Assembly (NCBI GenBank): GCA_023244855.1
Contig: JAHFLO010000001.1
Span: 5,895 to 69,894, forward strand
DNA: 64,000 nucleotides
Reading direction: 5' to 3'
DNA from: Candidatus Harrisonbacteria bacterium
GTDB taxonomy: Bacteria > Patescibacteriota > Minisyncoccia > UBA6257 > UBA11618
A model generated the notes under the pieces. The model was not told the origin of the DNA. It saw only the letters and a list, made by a program, of their open reading frames with translations, and did not search any database. The position numbers were made by a program, and so were the translations under genes. Shown piece by piece: positions 2,519 to 58,218 of the stretch. Every line of letters begins with the position of its first letter. Position 1 is the stretch's first letter.

Positions 2519-2589
2519 TGGACCTAGGCGGAATCGAACCGCCGCCTCGTCAATGCGAATGACGCGTTCTGCCCCTGAACTATAGGCCC
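2519..2589 (-). tRNA. tRNA-Ala (anticodon CGC)
   Basis: Hand-folded cloverleaf: acceptor GGGCCTA/TAGGTCC with G3:U70, anticodon arm CGTCA-TTCGCAT-TGACG, T arm GGCGG-TTCGATT-CCGCC, discriminator A. Confidence 0.85.
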
Positions 2590-2600
2590 GCTTTTAAAGA

Positions 2601-2690
2601 TTAATACTGCCCCATGAAAAGGGGCGCGACGAACATGAATATCATGAGCGCCATCACTACGTAAAAACCGATCTTCTTAACCTGTTTCAT
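2601..2690 (-). CDS. Possible 29-aa hydrophobic micro-protein
   Basis: ATG..TAA on the reverse strand gives MKQVKKIGFYVVMALMIFMFVAPLFMGQY. It is below the track size cut-off and has no homology evidence. Confidence 0.25.
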   Translation of the reverse strand: MKQVKKIGFYVVMALMIFMFVAPLFMGQY

Positions 2691-2740
2691 CGTGCAAATA
2701 CGTTAGCAAAAATTCGCTGCGTAATCAATTGAGATATGTG

Positions 2741-3742
2741 CTAACGCCCAGCGTCGCGATGATACGCATTCAAAAGCGTGTAGAGCAAGCTTATCGCCAA
2801 AGGCCCCAGCACAAACCCCGTAGGGCCAAAGAGCGCCATGCCGCCCAAAACCGAAAGTAATATGACGAATGGATGTAACGATACCCCGCGCCCGATAAGC
2901 TTCGGCCCGATGAAGTTATCTATCATACCCACCACGAATACGCCGTACACAAAAAGCCCTGCGGCGAATGCCGATGACCCTTGCAAAAAGAGATATGCCA
3001 CAGCGGGTGCTACCGTAAGCGCCGTGCCAACCCCCGGAATTAAAGCGGTCACGACCGTCACACTCCCCCATAAGATGGCATTCGGTATGCCAAATATAAG
3101 GAAACCGATCATAGCAAGCAAACCCTGCACTAACGCCATCAAAAGCCGCCCCGTCACAATAGAATTCACTGCGCGGCCGAGCATACGCGCAATTTCTTCA
3201 TCGTCTTCGTCCATAAGAGGGCTCAGGGATATAAACGCGCGGCGAAACGCGGCACCATCTTTCAAAAAATAATACAGCGCCATAATAAAAAGAATTATAT
3301 CCACAAAAAACTTAGCGACACCCGAAACAACGACCCCTACGTTGCCCGCGAGCCAATTAAGCGCTTCTTTGGCGTAACTTCCTATATCAAACGGCAATGA
3401 ATCACCCACAAACCCCCGCACGGCGTCGAACACCGTCCCTGCCGTACCACTCGTTTCGAGCGCATGATAGACGCCTGCCGCCTCCCCTGCTACCTGCGTA
3501 CCAAGCAATGTAAGCGGAGCGACAATAACAAGAAGCACAAGCACGGTCGTTATTGCCGCAGCAATTCCCGCATGGTTACGTACTGCTCCTTTTATTTTTT
3601 TATACGGCGTCTGAAAGGCAACGGCAAAAACCGCAGCGAGCACAATCGGCGCAAAGAACGGCTTTAATATCAAAAAGGCGACGGTAAACATGGCGCCCAA
3701 AAGGGCGAGGAGGAAATAAAACGAAAGTGCTTTAGGCGGCAT
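2741..3742 (-). CDS. AI-2E family transporter (PerM/UPF0118-like permease)
   Basis: Multi-TM protein with the family-typical layout. I place the start at internal Met MPPKALSFYF (3742) because a terminator hairpin and a TATACT box lie inside the longer track ORF (to 3793). Confidence 0.8.
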   Translation of the reverse strand: MPPKALSFYFLLALLGAMFTVAFLILKPFFAPIVLAAVFAVAFQTPYKKIKGAVRNHAGIAAAITTVLVLLVIVAPLTLLGTQVAGEAAGVYHALETSGTAGTVFDAVRGFVGDSLPFDIGSYAKEALNWLAGNVGVVVSGVAKFFVDIILFIMALYYFLKDGAAFRRAFISLSPLMDEDDEEIARMLGRAVNSIVTGRLLMALVQGLLAMIGFLIFGIPNAILWGSVTVVTALIPGVGTALTVAPAVAYLFLQGSSAFAAGLFVYGVFVVGMIDNFIGPKLIGRGVSLHPFVILLSVLGGMALFGPTGFVLGPLAISLLYTLLNAYHRDAGR

Positions 3743-3844
3743 ATGCGGGAAGTATATAAAAAAAGAACCGTATGCACCACTAGGGATGCACACGGCTCAG
3801 GGTTAAGGAGTTCTTCGTACGACATGGGCACGGTGCCTGCCGGA

Positions 3845-4522
3845 CTAGATCTTCGATTGCGGCAACGGAATCGCATCCGGCTTCTGCTGTTCCTTGACGG
3901 ACAACTGGATCGCCTTCTGCTGCCGTTGGACCAACACCGGATCAAACATCACGTCGAAGGTGATCGATGTCTTCGTTTCTTCGATGATTTCAACGGTCGC
4001 CTCGGTCCGGTTCATGTGCTTCAACGGCAACCAATGCGCCCATTGCCCGAATTCGACGAGTTTCGCATCGAGCATGCGTCGCTCCGCACTATCCTTCTCT
4101 TTGAGCTTCGCGATGGCTTCTGCGGTTCCCGTTAAAATCATCGTCGTGTTGTAGTCGCAGCTCTTGCCGACGACGAACGTCTCGATGCCTTTCGGGAACA
4201 GGATCGGCGTCGCGGTCTCCGCGAGCTCGAGCTTGACCTCGAAAACGGCGTCCGGCTTCGACTTAATCGACGCCTCGAGCACCAAATCCTTCCGCATCAC
4301 CGCCTGCAAATGCCGCGACAATGCCTGCTGGACTTCCATCGCGCGAGTACTCGACTGGTCGCCGGCGACCTTCGCCGTCCACGTCTGGGCACCACCCTTG
4401 GCGGTCATGGATGCGGACCGGTAGTACGGCACCGCCGGATAGTCGTCAGCCGCTTGCGCCGCTGCGGCGAACACTCCGAACAAACAGGCCATCGCGGCCA
4501 CGCACTTGAACAAGCTCTTCAT
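3845..4522 (-). CDS. Hypothetical secreted protein (islet gene)
   Basis: 225 aa. Signal peptide MKSLFKCVAAMACLFGVFAAAAQA. SD GAGGAG 7 nt upstream of the ATG, and an upstream TTGACA-17-TACGAT promoter. G/C-rich third codon positions. Confidence 0.6.
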   Translation of the reverse strand: MKSLFKCVAAMACLFGVFAAAAQAADDYPAVPYYRSASMTAKGGAQTWTAKVAGDQSSTRAMEVQQALSRHLQAVMRKDLVLEASIKSKPDAVFEVKLELAETATPILFPKGIETFVVGKSCDYNTTMILTGTAEAIAKLKEKDSAERRMLDAKLVEFGQWAHWLPLKHMNRTEATVEIIEETKTSITFDVMFDPVLVQRQQKAIQLSVKEQQKPDAIPLPQSKI

Positions 4523-9142: not shown

Positions 9143-11272
9143 ATGCTAACGCTCAACACCGAGCTTGCGCACATACAGGGTATTAACAAGCGCCTTCAGG
9201 ACGGCCTGAAAAAACTCGGCCTTATTACCGTCCGCGACTTAGTGCTCCACCTGCCGAACCGCTACGACGATTTTTCGAACGCGGCGACGATTGCCGACCT
9301 CGCCGTCGGCCAGATCGCGAGCGTGCGCGCCCGCGTGGCCAAAATAGAAATGCGCCGATCCTTCCGCCGCAATATGGCAATAGTCGAAGCCGTACTTGAA
9401 GACCGTACCGGCTCCGTGCGCGCCGTATGGTTTAACCAGCCGTATATCCTCCGCTCCCTGCCAGTCGGCACCGTTGGCAACTTCGCCGGCAAGGCGACCG
9501 TTTCGCAGGGCGCACTCTATTTATCGAACCCTGTCTACGAACCGGCGTATGCGGAAACGAAGCACACCGAAGGCCTCGTGCCTATTTATCCCGAAACAAA
9601 AGGTATGACGAGCCGCGGCATCCGCTACCTTATGCGCCCCATACTCGACGCGTTGAAAGACGTTCCCGAATGCGTGCCGCATGACGTTTGCAAAAAACTT
9701 GACCTTCCGTCCTTCCTCGAAGCGCTTCGCATGGTACATATGCCGCAATCAGCGGAAGCGGCGGAGCCTGCTAAAAAACGCATCGCGCTCGAAGACCTGT
9801 TTTTACTACAGCTCACGAACCTGCAGGCGAAAATGAAGTTGGCGCAAGAACCGGCGCACCCCGTGCCATGGACGGATGCGGAACGCGACGCATTACTCGC
9901 GGAACTCCCCTTCGCCCTTACGGGGTCGCAACGAAGCTCGCTCGACGAAATTCTCGCGGATATACAGCGCCCGCACCCCATGAACCGCTTATTACAAGGC
10001 GACGTCGGCTCAGGCAAAACGGTCGTTATAGCGGTCGCCGCGCTTTTAGCCGCGCGGCACGGGTTTCAAACCGCTATCCTCGCCCCTACCGAAACTCTCG
10101 CCCGCCAGCATTACCGCACGTTCGAAAAGATTTTCAATCGAGCGGTGCACGACTGGAGCCTTAACTTCGCCCTCATGACTTCCGCGGAGTGCCGCGCCTC
10201 GTACGGCGAAGGCCTCGAAACGGACTTACCAAAGGCGCGCGTCGCATCTCGCATTAAGGACGGGCATTTAAAGATCGTCATCGGCACCCATGCTTTGCTG
10301 CAAAAGGGCGTTACCTTCCCCCGCCTCGCGCTCGTGGCTGTGGACGAACAGCACCGCTTCGGCGTAGAGCAACGCGCCGCGCTTACGAAGAGCGCAGGGC
10401 ATGGCGCGCGTGCGCTACCCCATTTTCTTTCCATGAGCGCCACCCCGATCCCCCGCACGCTCTCTCTCACCATCTTTGGCGACTTGGACCTTTCGATAAT
10501 CGACGAACTGCCGAGCGGCCGGAAGCCGATCATAACAAAAGTCGTCGCATCGACTGACCGGCCGAAGGCGCACGCCTTTATTCGGCAAGAAATAAAAAAA
10601 GGGCGGCAAGCGTTCGTAATTTGCCCGCGCATCGAGGAAAGCGAAGATTCAGACGATGCTACCGCAATCCCCAATGCATGGAGTGACGTAAAAGCCGTCA
10701 CGCAGGAATACGAAAAGCTGGCGAAGGAAATATTCCCCGACCTCAAGGTCGCCATGCTTCACGGCAAAATGAAAAGCGCTGAAAAAGCCGCGGTGATGGA
10801 CGCCTTCGCGAAAAACAAAACGAACATCTTGGTGGCAACGTCCGTGATCGAAGTGGGCGTGGACGTGCCGAACGCGACGATCATGGCGATAGAAGATGCG
10901 GATCGTTTCGGCCTCGCCCAGCTCTACCAATTCCGCGGGCGCGTAGGCCGTTCCAGCCACCAATCAGCATGCCTCTTATTTACTGCGAACAAGTCAGCGG
11001 TTTCGCGCGAACGGCTAAAGGCCCTTACGACCGCAAAGAACGGTTTTGAATTAGCGGAAAAAGATTTGGCGATGCGCGGCCCCGGCGAATTCTTGGGCCG
11101 CACGCAAACAGGTATGCCGGACATTGCCATGAACGCCTTAAACGATATGGAACTCGTGAAGGCCGCGCGCACGGCAGCAAGCGACGTATTGAAAAAAGAT
11201 AAAGACCTAAAACAAAACCCCCATCTTGAAGAGCGGCTTAACGCATTCCGAAAGGCTGTTCATCTCGAGTAA
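9143..11272 (+). CDS. recG: ATP-dependent DNA helicase RecG
   Basis: 709 aa. GDVGSGKT Walker A, DEQHRFG, wedge/OB N-terminus (LPNRYDD). Confidence 0.9.
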   Translation: MLTLNTELAHIQGINKRLQDGLKKLGLITVRDLVLHLPNRYDDFSNAATIADLAVGQIASVRARVAKIEMRRSFRRNMAIVEAVLEDRTGSVRAVWFNQPYILRSLPVGTVGNFAGKATVSQGALYLSNPVYEPAYAETKHTEGLVPIYPETKGMTSRGIRYLMRPILDALKDVPECVPHDVCKKLDLPSFLEALRMVHMPQSAEAAEPAKKRIALEDLFLLQLTNLQAKMKLAQEPAHPVPWTDAERDALLAELPFALTGSQRSSLDEILADIQRPHPMNRLLQGDVGSGKTVVIAVAALLAARHGFQTAILAPTETLARQHYRTFEKIFNRAVHDWSLNFALMTSAECRASYGEGLETDLPKARVASRIKDGHLKIVIGTHALLQKGVTFPRLALVAVDEQHRFGVEQRAALTKSAGHGARALPHFLSMSATPIPRTLSLTIFGDLDLSIIDELPSGRKPIITKVVASTDRPKAHAFIRQEIKKGRQAFVICPRIEESEDSDDATAIPNAWSDVKAVTQEYEKLAKEIFPDLKVAMLHGKMKSAEKAAVMDAFAKNKTNILVATSVIEVGVDVPNATIMAIEDADRFGLAQLYQFRGRVGRSSHQSACLLFTANKSAVSRERLKALTTAKNGFELAEKDLAMRGPGEFLGRTQTGMPDIAMNALNDMELVKAARTAASDVLKKDKDLKQNPHLEERLNAFRKAVHLE

Positions 11273-29629: not shown

Positions 29630-29659
29630 AAAAACGCCGGATATCGATCCGGCGTTTTT
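29630..29659. terminator. Bidirectional hairpin terminator
   Basis: aaaaacgccggatatcgatccggcgttttt. Confidence 0.8.
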
Positions 29660-30548
29660 ATTCTTCCTCACTCCTCCTTTTGCCGTGGAACGCCTTATAA
29701 ACTTCGCGGAGATGCTTGTTGGTGACATGGGTATAAATCTGCGTGGTGGCTATGGAGGCATGGCCGAGCATTTCTTGCACCGAACGAATATCCGCGCCAT
29801 TCGCAAGTAAGTCCGTGGCGAAGCAGTGGCGGAGGGTATGCGGCGAAAGCTTCTTACCTATAATCCCGGCTTGCACCCCATACCGCCCTATCATACGCTC
29901 CACCGCGCGCGGGGTTATACGCCCAATTATCTTTCCCTTCAGGATACTCACGAACAAAGGGATCTCCGCATCCGTGCGCCTGTCCATATATGCCGCCACC
30001 GCCTTGCACGCCGTAGGCGATAAGAATACCAGCCGCACCTTCCCTCCCTTCCCCCGCACCGTAAGCTCGCCTTTTTTTAAATCAATAAAACGGTCGAGTG
30101 CGCACAGTTCCGAAAGCCGTAAACCGGTACAAAAAAATAATTCGAGCATCGCCTTGTCACGCACGCCTGCGAGCGTCTTAGTATCCGGCGCGTCGAGCAG
30201 TCGTTCTAATTCAACGTGACTTATAATCTCCACTTGCCGCGCCGGCGCCTTTAATAATTCAATACGCTCGGGTGGGACGGTTTCATGCCCGCGCTTCGCT
30301 AAATATTTTAAAAAACTACGGAGGGCTATTACATACTGACTCTGCGTCGCCTTCTTTAAGTCCTCGCGCGCGAGAGCGAGACGGAAATCACGAATACCCT
30401 GCTCCGTAATATCGCTCACATCGGTAATTTTTGCGGCCGTAAGGAACCGCTCGAGGTAATGGGCGTACGCGCGCCGCGTGACCACCGCCCGCCCCCGCTC
30501 CACCTCTAAGTAGTCAAGATATTCCTTCAGAACCGTCAAAGCTTTCAT
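29658..30548 (-). CDS. Tyrosine recombinase XerC/XerD-type
   Basis: HTLRHCFATDLL..GADIRSVQEMLGHASIATTQIYTHV catalytic region. Start at MKALTVLKEY (30548), with a TATATT box 6 nt upstream. Confidence 0.85.
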   Translation of the reverse strand: MKALTVLKEYLDYLEVERGRAVVTRRAYAHYLERFLTAAKITDVSDITEQGIRDFRLALAREDLKKATQSQYVIALRSFLKYLAKRGHETVPPERIELLKAPARQVEIISHVELERLLDAPDTKTLAGVRDKAMLELFFCTGLRLSELCALDRFIDLKKGELTVRGKGGKVRLVFLSPTACKAVAAYMDRRTDAEIPLFVSILKGKIIGRITPRAVERMIGRYGVQAGIIGKKLSPHTLRHCFATDLLANGADIRSVQEMLGHASIATTQIYTHVTNKHLREVYKAFHGKRRSEEE

Positions 30549-30599
30549 GGTTTGAATATACCGCAAAAAGCGTGATATGCTCTAAATCTTCTAAAGACT

Positions 30600-33152: not shown

Positions 33153-33226
33153 GGGCCAGTAGCTTAGAGGCCTAAAGCATCGAGCTTATACCTCGAGGAT
33201 CGATGGTTCGAATCCATCCTGGCCCA
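33153..33226 (+). tRNA. tRNA-Ile (anticodon UAU)
   Basis: Acceptor GGGCCAG/CTGGCCC, anticodon arm TCGAG-CTTATAC-CTCGA, T arm GATGG-TTCGAAT-CCATC. 74 nt. Confidence 0.8.
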
Positions 33227-33248
33227 CAAATAAATATAAAAAATAAAG

Positions 33249-34512: not shown

Positions 34513-34587
34513 GGGCGCCTAGCTCAGTGGTAGAGCGCTTCTTTTACACAGAAGATGTCGGGGGTTCGATTCCCTTGGCGCCCACCA
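34513..34587 (+). tRNA. tRNA-Val (anticodon UAC), CCA encoded
   Basis: Acceptor GGGCGCC/GGCGCCC, anticodon arm CTTCT-TTTACAC-AGAAG, T arm GGGGG-TTCGATT-CCCTT, ends ACCA. Confidence 0.85.
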
Positions 34588-34834: not shown

Positions 34835-34990
34835 ATGACCAGCTTTCAAGAAGAAGGCTTATTCACTGAACGAGAAGGACAAGGAACCACGGAAAAAGAA
34901 GAACGCGACGAGGACAGAAAAAAGGATGGTCCGTCGCTCCCACCTGCCGTTCTCGAGTACGTCGAAACGCACGGGGGCGCCAATGATTAA
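34835..34990 (+). CDS. Possible 51-aa acidic small protein
   Basis: MTSFQEEGLFTEREGQGTTEKEERDEDRKKDG... Followed by the terminator cccgcc..ggcgggtttttt (about 35016-35052). Confidence 0.35.
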   Translation: MTSFQEEGLFTEREGQGTTEKEERDEDRKKDGPSLPPAVLEYVETHGGAND

Positions 34991-35126
34991 ACCGTATGGC
35001 ACCCCCCCACCCCAAACCCGCCCCTGCATCGCAGGAATAGGCGGGTTTTTTGATTTTCCCGATTTTTCCGCTATACTCTCCCCCGTTAGCACCCCACAAC
35101 CGAATACTCGAAAAAGGAATTTCAAA

Positions 35127-35777
35127 GTGGCCCTACGGCATCTCTTAACCCAGCAAGTCCTTACGCCTGAGATAGAAACAGAACAACAGCCTTCGATCGT
35201 CGTCCTCCACGGATACGAAACGTACGCCGGCGGCCGGCTCGGCCCCCTCGCCCTTGCCGTATGCGTTGCCGCGCTCGCGATCTACCGCGCGGAACGCAAC
35301 GTGCTTTTCATCCTCGTGGGCGGCTGGCACCTAAAAGAAGCTGGAGCCTCAAACACCATCGCGGATGCCATGGCATTATGGCTTATGGAAAACGGCGTAC
35401 CGAAGGAACGCGTCATCACCCAACGGGGCATGAGCCTAATGCATTTCCGGCCCCCGCGCGATACCCACGAAGAACTAGCACTTCTCCGCATGATCCGGCG
35501 CATGCTCGGACTCTATGGCATGAATCCGTTCCGCTTCATTGCGTGGGAGAAGCATGTACCGCGTATAGAAGCAGTCCAACGCACGTGGAAAATGCGTTCC
35601 ACCAAAGCCGTTCCCGTTACCCCTATCCCCCACCAATGGCTATGGAAACGGCGCGCCACCGAGCTCTGCGCACGGATAGCGCAAGCGTTCGACCCGCAGG
35701 GATACGGAAGAATTTTTACCCGCATCCGCCGCGGACGGACTATCGCAAGTGAAGGAATTCCCCTCCTCGAGACATAG
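35127..35777 (+). CDS. DUF218/YdcF(ElyC/SanA)-like protein
   Basis: GTG start after aaAAGGAAtttcaaa and downstream of a TATACT box. PSIVVLHGYE..ILVGGWH pattern. The upstream part of the track ORF spans a terminator. Confidence 0.55.
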   Translation: MALRHLLTQQVLTPEIETEQQPSIVVLHGYETYAGGRLGPLALAVCVAALAIYRAERNVLFILVGGWHLKEAGASNTIADAMALWLMENGVPKERVITQRGMSLMHFRPPRDTHEELALLRMIRRMLGLYGMNPFRFIAWEKHVPRIEAVQRTWKMRSTKAVPVTPIPHQWLWKRRATELCARIAQAFDPQGYGRIFTRIRRGRTIASEGIPLLET

Positions 35778-35859
35778 GTAGTCTCCCCCGCCTCCCAGCA
35801 ACCAAAACCTCAACCCGCTGTCTCCCCGACTGCGGGTTTTTTGTTGACCACTCACCCAC

Positions 35860-36310
35860 CCTGATAAACAAATTGTTTACCGGCAAACACTTTATATTTT
35901 TTGTAAAACACTTTTGTTTTACAAAGTGTTAAACATCGCTGTTAAACAAAATTTTGTTTAACACCCAAAAAAGATAATAGCAAAGCGCCCGCCCGCTTGT
36001 TTTACAAACATGGCATTGACTTACTTTGTTTAACAGTGTGAAACATATCGTTTTGTAAAACAATCCGATACGCTCATGGATATTAGATTTTATTAAAAAA
36101 TGCATAATTGAGTGTTTAGCGTTTTTCACGAAAAAACGATTTTATTTTGTAAATCAACCAACACTCGACCGCATTTGTAAAACAATTTGTTTGCTGACAA
36201 GCATTGATTTACATAATTTAGAGTGTTGGTTGATTTACAAATCAAATCACTTGTTGGTCAACCAACAGTGATTTGCTGATGTAATTGAGTGTTGGTTGAT
36301 TTACAATCAA
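35860..36310. repeat. A+T-rich block dense in iterons and palindromes
   Basis: 20-mer GAGTGTTGGTTGATTTACAA at 36221-40 and 36287-306, inverted at 36147-66. 22-nt perfect palindrome at 35941-62. IR TTGTAAAACA-cttt-TGTTTTACAA at 35901-24. More than 10 copies of TGTTT(T/A)ACA-type words. Confidence 0.8.
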
Positions 36311-36314
36311 ACAC

Positions 36315-36677
36315 ATGACCCCGAAGCAAAAACGCGGAAACAGGGGAGAGGATATCGCCGCCGAATACCTTATCGCAAAAGGACATACAATAATCGACCG
36401 CCAACACCGTAAGCCGTGGGGCGAACTAGATATCATAGCGAAGGCAGGGGATGACACGCTCGTCTTCGTGGAGGTGAAAGCCATAGGGGCGGGCAGCGGG
36501 GCTTTTACGCCCGAGGGGAATATGACCTCTACCAAGATTATGAAAACCAAGCGGGCCGCCCTAACCTACGCGAACGCCAACCCAAAGCTTTCGGCCAAGG
36601 GGTGGCGCATAGACGTCATCGCCATAGACCTCGCAGGGGATACGGCGCGCGCCCTCCGGCACTACGAAAATATCTAA
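36315..36677 (+). CDS. yraN: YraN-family (UPF0102) endonuclease-like protein
   Basis: GEDIAAEYLIAKGHTIIDRQHRKPWGELDIIAK..LVFVEVK is the UPF0102 pattern. TACAAT lies 7 nt upstream of the ATG. Confidence 0.8.
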   Translation: MTPKQKRGNRGEDIAAEYLIAKGHTIIDRQHRKPWGELDIIAKAGDDTLVFVEVKAIGAGSGAFTPEGNMTSTKIMKTKRAALTYANANPKLSAKGWRIDVIAIDLAGDTARALRHYENI

Positions 36678-36824
36678 CGAGGGTGGGGGATGGACTTGAC
36701 AAGAAGCCCTGAAAAGAATATCCTTTTAGAGTAAGTGCTGTGATTGACTGGCCGCCCGTGGGGTGGCCATTACTGTTTTTAAATACCATTCTCATCACTA
36801 AAATAATTAATAAAAAATAAAAAT

Positions 36825-38084
36825 ATGTTCGACCTGAAAGTCATCGCGCGCGCCATCGAGCAGCTCGCGGAAGAGAAGCACATAGAAACCGGCAAAGTAG
36901 TCGAGGCTGTTGAAGCCGCACTCGCCGCTGCGTACAAAAAAGAATACGAAAAGAGGGGAGAGGTCGTGCGCGCGAAATTCGATTTAAAAACCGGCAACGT
37001 TACCTTCGCGCAAATCAAAACCGTAGCGGATGAAACGACCGTCGACATGACACCGCCATCCGAAGAAGAAATCGCAGCGGAAAAAGCACCCGCCGAAATG
37101 GACTACCGCAACTCGCGCTACGAAGCGCCGGAGCCCGTACTCGAAGAAGGCAAATTACCGCGCTACAATCCCGACCGTTACATCTTGATCAAGGAAGCGC
37201 AGAAGATTAAAGCCGACGTACTGCTCGGCGAAGAATTGGAATTCCCGCTCGAAACGAAAATCGACTTCGGCCGTATTGCCTCGCAAACGGCGAAGCAAAA
37301 TATTTTACAGAAACTCCGCGAAGCGGAACGCGACTCGATCATGTCCGAATTCAAGAATAAAGAAGGTGAGATTGTTAACGGCGTGATACAGCGCTTTGAG
37401 CGGGGGACTACGTACGTCGACATCGGCCGCGCAACGGGCGTGATGTTCTACAACGAATCCATCCCTGGCGAGCACTACCGCATCGGCGACCGCATGAAGT
37501 TCTACGTGACGGCAATCCAGAACGACACGAAGGGTCCCGGTATTATTCTTTCGCGCGCGCACCCGCGCCTCGTCGTAAAACTCTTTGCGCTCGAGTCGCC
37601 CGAAATTGCGGATGGCTCGGTAGAGATCCAAGCCATCGCGCGCGAAGCCGGCAACCGCACAAAGATTGCGGTGGTATCGCACATGAAAGGCGTTGACCCC
37701 GTTGGCTGTTGCGTCGGCCAGCGCGGCACCCGCGTAATGGCGGTAAGCGGCGAACTCGGCCAAGAGAAAATAGACATCATAGAATTCTCCGAAGACCCCG
37801 CGGACTTTATTGCGCACGCATTGTCGCCCGCAAAAGTCGCGCGCGTGGAGATTATGCCGCGCCGCGAAGCCCGCGCCTTTATTCCTGACGACCAGCTCTC
37901 TTTAGCTATCGGCAAGGGCGGCCAGAACGTGCGCTTGGCGCACCGGCTGACTGGCTGGAAGATAGACATCCGCGCCGAGTCCTCGCCGGAAACCGCCGTA
38001 CTGAAAGATGAAGAAATGCCGCAAGCGGAGGGAGCTGAGGAAACAGCGACGGACGCATCCACTGAACCGAAGACTGAAGCGTAA
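36825..38084 (+). CDS. nusA: Transcription termination/antitermination factor NusA
   Basis: 419 aa. N-terminal domain, S1 (GEIVNGVIQRFERGTTYVDIG) and two KH domains (VGCCVGQRGTRV, AIGKGGQNVRLA). Confidence 0.9.
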   Translation: MFDLKVIARAIEQLAEEKHIETGKVVEAVEAALAAAYKKEYEKRGEVVRAKFDLKTGNVTFAQIKTVADETTVDMTPPSEEEIAAEKAPAEMDYRNSRYEAPEPVLEEGKLPRYNPDRYILIKEAQKIKADVLLGEELEFPLETKIDFGRIASQTAKQNILQKLREAERDSIMSEFKNKEGEIVNGVIQRFERGTTYVDIGRATGVMFYNESIPGEHYRIGDRMKFYVTAIQNDTKGPGIILSRAHPRLVVKLFALESPEIADGSVEIQAIAREAGNRTKIAVVSHMKGVDPVGCCVGQRGTRVMAVSGELGQEKIDIIEFSEDPADFIAHALSPAKVARVEIMPRREARAFIPDDQLSLAIGKGGQNVRLAHRLTGWKIDIRAESSPETAVLKDEEMPQAEGAEETATDASTEPKTEA

Positions 38085-56699: not shown

Positions 56700-57548
56700 G
56701 TGTCTGTCTATTACACCGCCAAACGAACCAAGGGAACGTACGAACCGGCTTCGCGCGAAGCCTTCAAGTTGTCGCGCTCGAAGATCGACCTCTTCATGCA
56801 ATGCCCGCGGTGCTTTTACCTCGACCGGCGCATAGGCATTGGCCGGCCGCCCGGATTCCCATTCGCGCTCAACTCCGCCGTAGACCACCTCCTTAAAAAG
56901 GAATTCGATATTCACCGCGCGGCGGGCAATAAGCACCCGCTTATGGAAAAGTACGGAATAGATGCCGTGCCCGCACAGCACGAAAAACTCGACGAGTGGC
57001 GCCACAACTTTACGGGCGTGGGGACTTTACACGCAGCCACCAACTTTTACGTCTTCGGCGCGATAGACGACCTATGGCTTAATGCGAAAGGGGAATACAT
57101 GGTGGTGGACTATAAGGCGACCGCAAAAGAAGAAGATATTAATGCCTTAGATAAAGACTGGCACGACGGCTACAAGCGCCAAATGGAAATATACCAATGG
57201 CTCCTACGGCAAAACGGATTCACGGTTTCAAGTACCGGCTACTTTGTGTACTGCAACGGCAAGACAGACAGAAAAGCCTTCGACGGCAAGCTTGACTTCG
57301 ACGTGACGCTCATCGCCTATACGGGAGACTCCGGCTGGGTAGATAAGGCGCTCGTAGACGCGAAAGCCTGCCTCGATAAAAATGAAATCCCGAAAGCGGA
57401 CGCCGCCTGCGACTACTGTGCGTACGTCGCCGCCGTAGAAAAAGATACGCGCCCCGCACCAGATGCCGTTTCACGCATAACCGTAAGCAACCTACCCCCG
57501 CAACGCGCAGCCACACCAAAAAAGAAAACCCCGCCGACGCTTTTCTAG
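56700..57548 (+). CDS. PD-(D/E)XK nuclease-family protein with Cas4-like Cys cluster
   Basis: GTG start. N-terminal LFMQCPRCFYL, core GAIDDLW...VVDYK, C-terminal CDYC (C-x2-C...C-x2-C). Confidence 0.6.
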   Translation: MSVYYTAKRTKGTYEPASREAFKLSRSKIDLFMQCPRCFYLDRRIGIGRPPGFPFALNSAVDHLLKKEFDIHRAAGNKHPLMEKYGIDAVPAQHEKLDEWRHNFTGVGTLHAATNFYVFGAIDDLWLNAKGEYMVVDYKATAKEEDINALDKDWHDGYKRQMEIYQWLLRQNGFTVSSTGYFVYCNGKTDRKAFDGKLDFDVTLIAYTGDSGWVDKALVDAKACLDKNEIPKADAACDYCAYVAAVEKDTRPAPDAVSRITVSNLPPQRAATPKKKTPPTLF

Positions 57549-57554
57549 GGCTCG

Positions 57555-57707
57555 TTTTAAAATAGGCCGCAAGCAGTTTCGAGGGATTTTCGAGCGAGAA
57601 CCGCGATCTTTCGACGAGGAATACCGAGGTATTCCGAGGAGAAAATCGCGATTCGTAGCCGGAAATAACCGAAAATGATGCGGATGGCATCCTAAACTAT
57701 TTTAAGA
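57555..57707. repeat. Nested-hairpin, long imperfect palindromic element (copy D)
   Basis: Outer stem ttttaaaatag/ctattttaaga, inner stem cgcgat/atcgcg, apex ggaatac-CGAG-gtattcc. Five (T)TCGA(G/C)GAG-type words. Confidence 0.6.
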
Positions 57708-57729
57708 TGAGTCCTATATTTGCTATACT
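57701..57729 (+). promoter_or_regulatory. Promoter with TATACT -10 box; the ATG lies 7 nt downstream (leaderless)
   Basis: ttaaga-16-tatact ctatct ATG(57736). Confidence 0.5.
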
Positions 57730-57735
57730 CTATCT

Positions 57736-58218
57736 ATGGCAGCACAAAATGATTTTGCTAAATTTTCCGCAGGGCAGATTGCGGACTTGATAAAGCAGGC
57801 GGACGCGAAGGCAGTTTCTACTTTATATGTTTTAGGTATCTCGACCGCCGCACTCCTTACGCGCATCAACACTATCAAGGCGAGCGGGGGAGCGACGCCT
57901 ATGTGGGGCGCGGTATTCGCCGTCGCCGTACTTTTAATACTCATTGCATTAAAGAGCGTCATCACCGTAATCTACCCGCGCGGCGGCAAGCCCGAGAAAG
58001 GGGATATGACATATTTCGAAAGCATCGCTGCAAACAAAAAAGAAACGTATATCAAAGCCGGCATGGCGCTTACGGACGACGATGTCGCGAAAGCCCTCTA
58101 TAGTAATGCTTATAACTTAGCGAAAGTAGCACATAACAAGTACCACGCCCTCCGCATAGCCCTCGCCCTTACGGCAACCTCGATCGTAACGACTATCCTC
58201 ATTCTCTTTTTAGCCTGA
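57736..58218 (+). CDS. 2-3 TM protein resembling DUF5706/PycTM- or SLATT-type effector modules (tentative)
   Basis: 160 aa. N-terminal amphipathic IADLIKQADAKAVSTLYVLGISTAALL, a second TM helix MWGAVFAVAVLLILIAL, a soluble helix and a C-terminal TM helix. Confidence 0.4.
   Translation: MAAQNDFAKFSAGQIADLIKQADAKAVSTLYVLGISTAALLTRINTIKASGGATPMWGAVFAVAVLLILIALKSVITVIYPRGGKPEKGDMTYFESIAANKKETYIKAGMALTDDDVAKALYSNAYNLAKVAHNKYHALRIALALTATSIVTTILILFLA

Follow-up and report, generated by a model that had tools for sequence, protein, structure and literature searches.

Within a 64,000-nucleotide stretch of Candidatus Harrisonbacteria DNA (contig JAHFLO010000001.1; hereafter the window), positions 35860 to 36310 form an A+T-rich block directly upstream of yraN and nusA that is crowded with short repeats and palindromes. 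We compared this block with the corresponding spacer of related genomes and with known partition sites (parS, bound by ParB), replication origins and operators. An earlier note, made from the sequence alone, had proposed three candidate roles: a replication origin or iteron array, a ParB/centromere-like loading site, or a multi-operator control region.

The spacer and its flanking genes

The G+C content of the block is 31%, compared with 58% and 56% in the flanking open reading frames (ORFs) and 53% over the whole window. In 200-bp windows, values range from 0.30 to 0.33 over 35900–36299 and from 0.57 to 0.61 in the flanks, so the sharp drop in composition described in the earlier note is real. 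The sequence is base-identical across three independent assemblies (ENA ERZ27279977, Logan SRR14366791 and ENA ERZ27280176) and is therefore not an assembly artefact.

On its left, the spacer is bordered by a terminator-like hairpin that ends the upstream gene (Table 1). This hairpin was read directly from the sequence; a promoter/terminator consensus scan of 35600–36500 called nothing and missed it because the loop is 13 nt long. The upstream gene, which the public annotation starts 57 nt further in, with a product of 264 aa, has no match of its own in Pfam or the PDB. Judged by its homologues, which carry PF02698, it is predicted to encode a diverged DUF218/YdcF protein and not a Rep or helix-turn-helix (HTH) protein. 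To the right, the gene order is yraN, nusA, inorganic pyrophosphatase, trigger factor, clpP and tyrS. The −10-like TACAAT lies 7 nt 5' of the yraN ATG, as had been noted before. For yraN, a transcription start at about 36314 is predicted, which would yield a leaderless mRNA.

Half-sites and palindromes within the block

The block is rich in one short word. The parS half-site TGTTTNNC occurs 14 times, whereas dinucleotide-shuffled versions of the block (2000) average 1.05 ± 1.0 and hold at most 5. Its 9-mer extension TGTTTNACA is found ten times in the block and not at all in the remaining 63.5 kb of the window, and 14 of the 21 window matches to TGTTTTACA with at most one mismatch fall in 35902–36305. 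Nearly all palindromes in the block are composed of a single 8–9-mer, TGTTTNAC(A), together with its complement. The resemblance of these words to parS half-sites, pointed out in the earlier note, is thus correct.

A full parS-format 16-mer (pattern TGTTT-N6-AAACA) is present once in contiguous form in the window, at the left edge of the block. This site, TGTTTACCGGCAAACA, agrees with TGTTNCACGTGAAACA in the outer TGTTT/AAACA and in the central CG and differs at the inner bases. Besides it, the window retains about ten half-sites in everted and expanded pairings that are conserved among relatives. The repeats listed previously were located again with small corrections: the inverted repeat given as 35901–35924 is present, the 22-nt perfect palindrome placed at 35941 is in fact a perfect 24-mer, TAAACAAATTGTTTA begins one base before the 35866 assigned to it, and the inverted repeat at 36244–36273 exists as an imperfect palindrome of 31 bp (Table 1).

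Table 1. Features of the block and of the adjoining genes (positions in the window).
Position	Strand	Feature	Remarks
34926–35777		DUF218 ORF, 283 aa	adjoins block upstream
35814–35842	+	terminator-like hairpin CCCGC...GCGGG followed by T6	left border of spacer
35863–35889		half-site TGTTTATC, then 16-mer TGTTTACCGGCAAACA	half-site 35863–35870 (−); 16-mer 35874–35889, pattern TGTTT-N6-AAACA
35865–35879		repeat TAAACAAATTGTTTA	
35900–35925		inverted repeat TTTGTAAAACA/TGTTTTACAAA	
35903–35963		five half-sites, 12–14 bp pitch	everted pair, GTTAAACA and 24-nt palindrome
35903–35922		everted pair GTAAAACA-CTTT-TGTTTTAC	4-bp gap
35928–35935		half-site GTTAAACA	
35940–35963		perfect 24-mer palindrome TGTTAAACAAAATTTTGTTTAACA	
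35998–36006		box TGTTTTACA	
36027–36045		19-bp quasi-palindrome TGTTTAACA-G-TGTGAAACA	parS order with 3 extra central bp
36054–36062		box TGTAAAACA	
36063–36146		most A+T-rich stretch, 27% G+C	single isolated half-site TGTTTAGC, 36113–36120
36147–36310		lineage-specific repeat region	20-mers, boxes, 31-bp imperfect palindrome, TACAAT
36147–36166	−	20-mer GAGTGTTGGTTGATTTACAA	exact copy
36176–36184		box TGTAAAACA	
36205–36213		box TGATTTACA	
36221–36240	+	20-mer GAGTGTTGGTTGATTTACAA	exact copy
36244–36274		31-bp imperfect palindrome	
36287–36306	+	20-mer GAGTGTTGGTTGATTTACAA	exact copy
36302–36307		−10-like TACAAT	
36315–36677	+	yraN (UPF0102, PD-(D/E)XK nuclease)	Pfam PF02021; array linked to yraN across relatives
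36825–38084	+	nusA	Pfam; anchor gene for collecting 80 related loci

Arrays of parS-like sites upstream of yraN in relatives

For comparison, 80 loci (numbered with the prefix L below) were retrieved with the NusA protein from metagenome-assembled genomes of Parcubacteria/Paceibacteria, with NusA identities of 54% to 96%. They include Harrisonbacteria, Liptonbacteria, Wolfebacteria and mislabelled "Saccharibacteria". In about 45 of the 80, yraN is immediately preceded by a long A+T-rich spacer full of xxxAAACA words, and in 42 an array of sites or half-sites was recognised upstream of yraN/nusA, within a spacer of 450–880 bp. More specifically, 20 loci carry at least three full TGTTTNNCGNNAAACA sites within 700 bp (3–10 sites each), six carry one or two full sites plus at least six half-sites, and 16 carry at least six half-sites only. 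The earlier note had listed a lack of conservation in related genomes among the findings that would refute its reading; the half-site array is conserved, although the 20-mers are lineage-specific.

The position of the array is retained when the neighbourhood changes. Inversion of yraN (L050, L067), or a distance of several kb between yraN and nusA (L077, L062), leaves it 5' of yraN, and in L066, which has no yraN there, it directly precedes nusA.

Many of these sites are recognisable parS. Locus L032 carries six perfect canonical parS, TGTTTCACGTGAAACA, preceded by direct TGTGAAACA half-sites; the sites recur at about 49 bp, a regular spacing shared by L043 and L018. The highest numbers of parS-format sites are ten each in L040 and L072 and nine in L043. 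Over all relatives 123 sites fit TGTTTNNCGNNAAACA, and CACGTG is the commonest centre, with 28 perfect CACGTG-centred sites among 161 pattern matches. Full sites of other clades read TGTTTGCCGGCAAACA, TGTTTAGCGCTAAACA or TGTTTGTCGACAAACA, and the ACCGGY/GCCGGC centres seen in the window recur in full sites of L002, L009, L015, L028, L031, L050 and L079. Hybrids such as TGTTTGCCGTGAAACA are also common, and since such hybrid centres occur, each half appears to be read independently. From these sequences the family consensus is TGTTT-NN-CG-NN-AAACA, with each arm read on its own.

This density is not typical of bacteria: 80 control loci anchored on ParB (690 kb of metagenome sequence, mostly from other phyla) hold at most two full sites each. 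In L002, L003 and L004, moreover, every 8-mer box in 13 kb falls within the spacer. Such enrichment and confinement fit a function at a single locus and not a regulon. A transcription-factor regulon is not supported, as TGTTTNACA is absent outside the block in 63.5 kb and the 8-mer boxes of L002–L004 are all in the spacer. A DNA-uptake sequence, considered on account of yraN and comM, was rejected, the word being absent from the rest of the window.

Several other features accompany the array in relatives. In 14 of them, an ORF of about 150 aa for a LAGLIDADG homing endonuclease (PF00961) lies between array and yraN (for example L062 1590–2051 (−) and L001 296–790 (−)) and resembles a mobile element inserted at a constant position. 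In L045 (2839–4737 (−)), L071 (1574–3449 (−)) and eight others, comM, encoding a Mg-chelatase-like helicase, and an ORF for a DksA/TraR zinc finger are divergent from yraN across the array; one study reports that ComM and YraN form a pair of helicase and nuclease in natural transformation (bioRxiv 10.1101/2024.02.06.579203). A TrpR-like HTH ORF of about 96–131 aa (PF01371) is the divergent neighbour in seven relatives (for example L072 4408–4698 (−)) and is also found 7 kb from parB in a Wolfebacteria contig (L167 2399–2794 (−)). At the yraN-distal edge of several arrays there is a second repeat family, TTCGGCAA(T)/CCGGCAA, which includes the palindrome TTCGGCAATTGCCGAA (L071 3760–3910; L079 2490–2515; L077 1650–1680; L032 1645–1670). 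Finally, two independent short-read contigs, L001 and L164, end inside the block (position 1 of L164 corresponds to window position 36160), so the array may explain why short-read contigs break here.

Pair geometry and conservation of the half-sites

Half-sites are arranged in a limited number of ways. Across the loci there are 124 contiguous pairs in parS order (gap 0) and 26 everted pairs GNNAAACA-N4-TGTTTNNC in 16 loci, one of them the window pair; direct repeats with gaps of 4–5 bp are also common. A 19-mer module, TGTTTNACA-N-TGTNAAACA, in parS order with three extra central bases, is shared by the window, L001, L003 and L004. Where both classes of site co-occur (L013, L023, L032, L045 and L071), the 9-mers, that is half-site plus A, are distal to yraN and the full palindromes proximal. 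The clade of the window (the window and L001–L004), and similarly L077, is dominated by 9-mers.

It is conceivable that the 9-mers TGTTTNACA and the everted pairs are read by a protein of their own (a ParB paralogue, a small HTH or ribbon-helix-helix regulator, or a nucleoid protein) that organises or represses the yraN(-nusA) promoter, only the full 16-mers being left to ParB. The 9-mers do behave as a separate class, with their following A, their near-symmetric TGT...ACA ends, their everted gap-4 and direct gap-4/5 spacings unlike parS, and their position distal to the full sites in the five loci just named. Within one genome, the variable bases of the 9-mers are not always those of its full sites. 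Small DNA-binding genes border the array in relatives (TrpR-like in seven loci, DksA/TraR zinc finger in ten), and the 20-mers of the window overlap the yraN −10 box. In the window, however, no such gene is adjacent, the neighbour being DUF218, and none of the roughly 60 other genes has the 9-mer upstream of it. The invariant TGTTT/AAACA core is common to the full sites, which makes a shared reader the simpler assumption, and 10–19 sites far exceed what a promoter operator usually needs. We regard a separate reader as unlikely, while giving it serious weight.

When the window, L001 and L002 are aligned, 55 of 64 box columns are invariant, compared with 46 of 92 non-box columns of the same stretch (Fisher p = 3e-6). 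The boxes of 35903–35963 are invariant in all three, and the stretch 36063–36146 is conserved only in part in L001 and L002. This pattern shows purifying selection on the half-sites among close relatives. It bears directly on whether the block could be the decaying relic of a parS array whose parAB genes were lost or moved, with no function left beyond the yraN promoter. The window clade is almost devoid of contiguous palindromes, of which relatives have 3–10; parAB occupies the syntenic interval in L012 and L165 and is absent in the window; and the yraN-proximal part has been replaced by unrelated repeats, all as expected of decay. A relic should not, however, keep its boxes far better than its spacers, nor the order, orientation and spacing of its modules in L003 and L004 (74–79% NusA identity), and every genome of the clade retains at least one full or nearly full 16-mer. 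We consider decay highly improbable.

The yraN-proximal 20-mers

The three copies of GAGTGTTGGTTGATTTACAA, two direct and one inverted, lie at the positions given in the earlier note. No match was obtained in any shuffle, even with three mismatches allowed. Each copy embeds the variant 9-mer TGATTTACA, and the last one supplies the −10-like TACAAT of yraN. The earlier note had suggested looking for the 20-mer in relatives: the yraN-proximal ~170 bp that contain it are absent in L002, and L001 keeps a single copy of a 16-nt core, TGTTGGTTGATTTACA. Among relatives whose spacer is intact, the nearest one does not conserve the 20-mer part. Embedding a variant half-site and overlapping the −10 box, these repeats would most likely be lineage-specific promoter or operator elements and a recent addition. 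A multi-operator control region is possible only for this yraN-proximal 20-mer part.

The block as a possible replication origin

Bacterial origins share with the block an A+T-rich spacer and many 9-mers in both orientations. The 9-mers could be lineage-specific DnaA boxes, TGTTTCACA being one mismatch from TTWTNCACA, and 36063–36146 the unwinding element. Yet no DnaA box TTATCCACA with up to two mismatches is present in 35778–36900 (the window maximum is two boxes per 600 bp), and canonical boxes are in use in the lineage: 32 perfect TTATCCACA occur over 900 kb against 6.9 expected, an approximately 5-fold enrichment, and 22 of the 32 are intergenic. Unlike DnaA boxes, the 9-mers have variable bases that differ between lineages (CA/TA/AA versus AT/GT). 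No DnaA or DnaN domain was found by Pfam in the 44 longer ORFs of the window, and a tblastn search with Bacillus subtilis DnaA gave no match in the window or in the 80 loci.

For the window, and for 29 loci along with controls, strand asymmetry was separated into a component due to replication and one due to transcription. In the window, GC skew becomes less negative across the block. The replication component rises from left to right in 24 of 26 array loci, with a mean shift of +0.096 compared with +0.042 in array-free controls, and a flip from negative to positive occurs in 10 of 29 loci. Half of the shift is also present in the controls, where the same purine-rich genes to the right account for the rise; the shifts in relatives are suggestive, with gene content as a confounder. 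The window shows no change of sign: its replication component is −0.10 to −0.12 to the left of the block and −0.04 to −0.06 to the right of it. The cumulative skew, proposed as a check in the earlier note, has no minimum at the block: the + strand is C-rich on both sides, and the curve falls on to 64 kb.

Only one relative, L071, combines an array, four canonical DnaA boxes abutting it and a sign flip of the skew; the array of L071 probably lies next to oriC. An origin in the window was rejected for lack of a DnaA box in the block (up to two mismatches), a dnaA gene and a skew sign change, and we consider it very unlikely that the block is oriC. With rep also missing, the replication origin or iteron array of the earlier note is not supported. 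More specifically, the origin of an iteron plasmid or integrated replicon was rejected on the grounds that the adjacent ORF is DUF218, that the 20-mer has only two direct copies 66 bp apart and one inverted copy, and that it is not conserved in L002.

The perfect DnaA boxes of the window number four (2411, 11776, 26534 and 62555) and lie at or near 5' regions. In relatives, perfect boxes are found at L014 1103, L018 1131, L034 639 and L045 5938, several of them just 3' of yraN, which suggests titration of DnaA, or a role for it as a transcription factor, at these places.

Partition genes in the lineage

ParB is present in this lineage, and hundreds of Patescibacteria ParBs carry the ParB_N, HTH_ParB and ParB_C domains. 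Some Patescibacteria have parA-parB in the variable FtsH...NusA interval. In L012, soj-spo0J lies directly upstream of nusA (2556–4457). In L165, which has the XerC-FtsH...NusA-Tig-ClpP-TyrRS synteny of the window, parA-parB (9217–10942), followed in name by relA as parA-parB-relA, lie in the interval that the window uses for DUF218, the block and yraN.

Single parS arms, or half-parS heptamers (GTTCCAC/GTTTCAC), are bona fide in vivo targets of chromosomal ParBs in Pseudomonas aeruginosa and other species, at which no spreading takes place (PMC5961200, PMC7022226). On this precedent, the isolated half-sites of the window are plausible ParB targets. In those species, hundreds of half-parS copies are scattered genome-wide, whereas those of the block are clustered in one spacer, do not occur in the other 63.5 kb and have preferred pair geometries.

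Other features of the window

At gathering thresholds, Rfam recovered only tRNAs in the window and no other structured RNA. A tRNA-Ile (anticodon UAU, 33153–33227) and a tRNA-Val(UAC) (34513–34587) sit among short ORFs without Pfam matches in a poorly conserved interval left of the block. The integrase nearest to the block is XerC-like (29658–30566) and has conserved synteny with FtsH. Further downstream, 56700–58218 holds an ORF for a PD-(D/E)XK nuclease followed by one with a PycTM domain (PF18967, Pycsar effector type); no cyclase was noted.

Discussion

Of the three roles proposed for the block, the comparative evidence favours the ParB/centromere-like loading site, since the orthologous spacer of relatives carries arrays of full parS 16-mers, many of them TGTTTCACGTGAAACA. 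With a probability of about 55%, we read the block as the local, partly degenerate copy of a ParB-family centromere-like array that lies upstream of yraN/nusA in a large group of Paceibacteria. The full 16-mer at the left edge would serve as the nucleation site for a ParB-type HTH protein whose gene lies elsewhere in the genome, and about 12 half-sites around it, forming everted, direct and 3-bp-expanded pairs with a pitch of about 12–13 bp, would concentrate the protein. The resulting partition complex, which may also load SMC, would be assembled on the spacer and abut the yraN promoter, where it may damp or time yraN-nusA transcription.

Several observations weigh against this reading. The search for rep, parB or HTH genes suggested in the earlier note found none in the window: Pfam scans of the 44 longer ORFs revealed no parA, parB or rep in the 64 kb, and tblastn with Spo0J, Soj and DnaA gave no match there. 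The one long public contig that carries the proteins of the window, 46 kb in length, stops at the right edge of the window and so reaches no further dnaA or parB. No parS-format site lies within 6–10 kb of parB in L012 and L165–L167, no parB lies within 6 kb of the array in array-bearing loci, and no examined locus has both. In the window only one contiguous 16-mer is left, with the centre ACCGGC and not CACGTG. Most of its boxes have an A next to the half-site (TGTTTNACA) and pair with a 3-bp insertion or in everted orientation, arrangements that should not fit a rigid parS-type ParB dimer. The dominant variants GTTTTAC and GTTTAAC alter a position that is strict for half-site binding by P. 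aeruginosa ParB. Lastly, 9-mer variants and full-site centres differ within one genome (CA versus GC in L028, AT versus GT/AG in L045), and given this mismatch a second protein could read the 9-mers.

Compared with chromosomal ParABS systems, the block has the same half-site (TGTTTNNC, with GTGAAACA present), relatives have perfect canonical parS, and the lineage has ParB proteins bearing ParB_N and HTH_ParB. The organisation differs. Chromosomes usually have few, dispersed sites, often within genes, and the ParB control loci have at most two per 20 kb, whereas the relatives pack up to ten into one spacer of at most 600 bp at a fixed locus. Arm positions 6–7 are free in the arrays, and in the window the palindromes are mostly replaced by half-sites.

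Plasmid type-I centromeres offer a parallel in density. In F, sopC is built of 12 tandem units of 43 bp that each contain an inverted repeat of 16 bp; P1 parS contains box A heptamers, ATTTCAC, in mixed orientation. The dense tandem sites of L032, L043 and L018, with their regular ~49-bp spacing, resemble the former, and the mixed-orientation half-sites of the window recall the box A arrangement. In contrast to these plasmid systems, the array is chromosomal, its intersite spacers are not repeated units, no IHF site or equivalent of box B was identified, and parAB is not adjacent. A model for an effect on yraN is KorB, a ParB-family regulator that binds the RK2 operators TTTAGCSGCTAAA and acts at promoters as a repressor. 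The TGTTTAGCGCTAAACA of some relatives resembles these operators in its core TTTAGC-GCTAAA, with the spacing off by one central base, and nothing here points to a KorB-like gene.

More tentatively, and as a proposal to which we attach only limited confidence, Paceibacteria may have a hitherto undescribed two-part chromosomal centromere at the fixed yraN/nusA locus. One part would be a sopC-like, relaxed parS array, TGTTT-NN-CG-NN-AAACA. The other would be a second class of TGTTTNACA 9-mers in everted (4-bp gap) and 3-bp-expanded pairs, for which either ParB, binding in a new geometry, or a new partner protein would be the reader. In the clade of the window, this second class would largely have taken over, possibly after parAB left the interval.

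While parS, ParB and half-parS binding are already known, a full-text search of the literature brought up no study of parS or ParB in Patescibacteria. We found no account of sopC-like arrays packed densely at a fixed yraN/nusA position on the chromosome in bacteria of the candidate phyla radiation, of inner bases that are free in each arm, of a conserved class of everted-pair sites, or of a clade in which half-sites largely replace palindromes. The array is tightly linked to yraN, and to comM as well in relatives, which associates putative partition sites with genes of natural transformation. Relaxed central bases and everted half-site pairs would extend what is known of how ParB-family HTH domains read DNA. 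Chromosome segregation in the ultrasmall, mostly uncultured bacteria of the candidate phyla radiation is essentially unstudied, and the array provides a concrete cis element for work on their ParB proteins as well as a marker of the partition locus in metagenome-assembled genomes.

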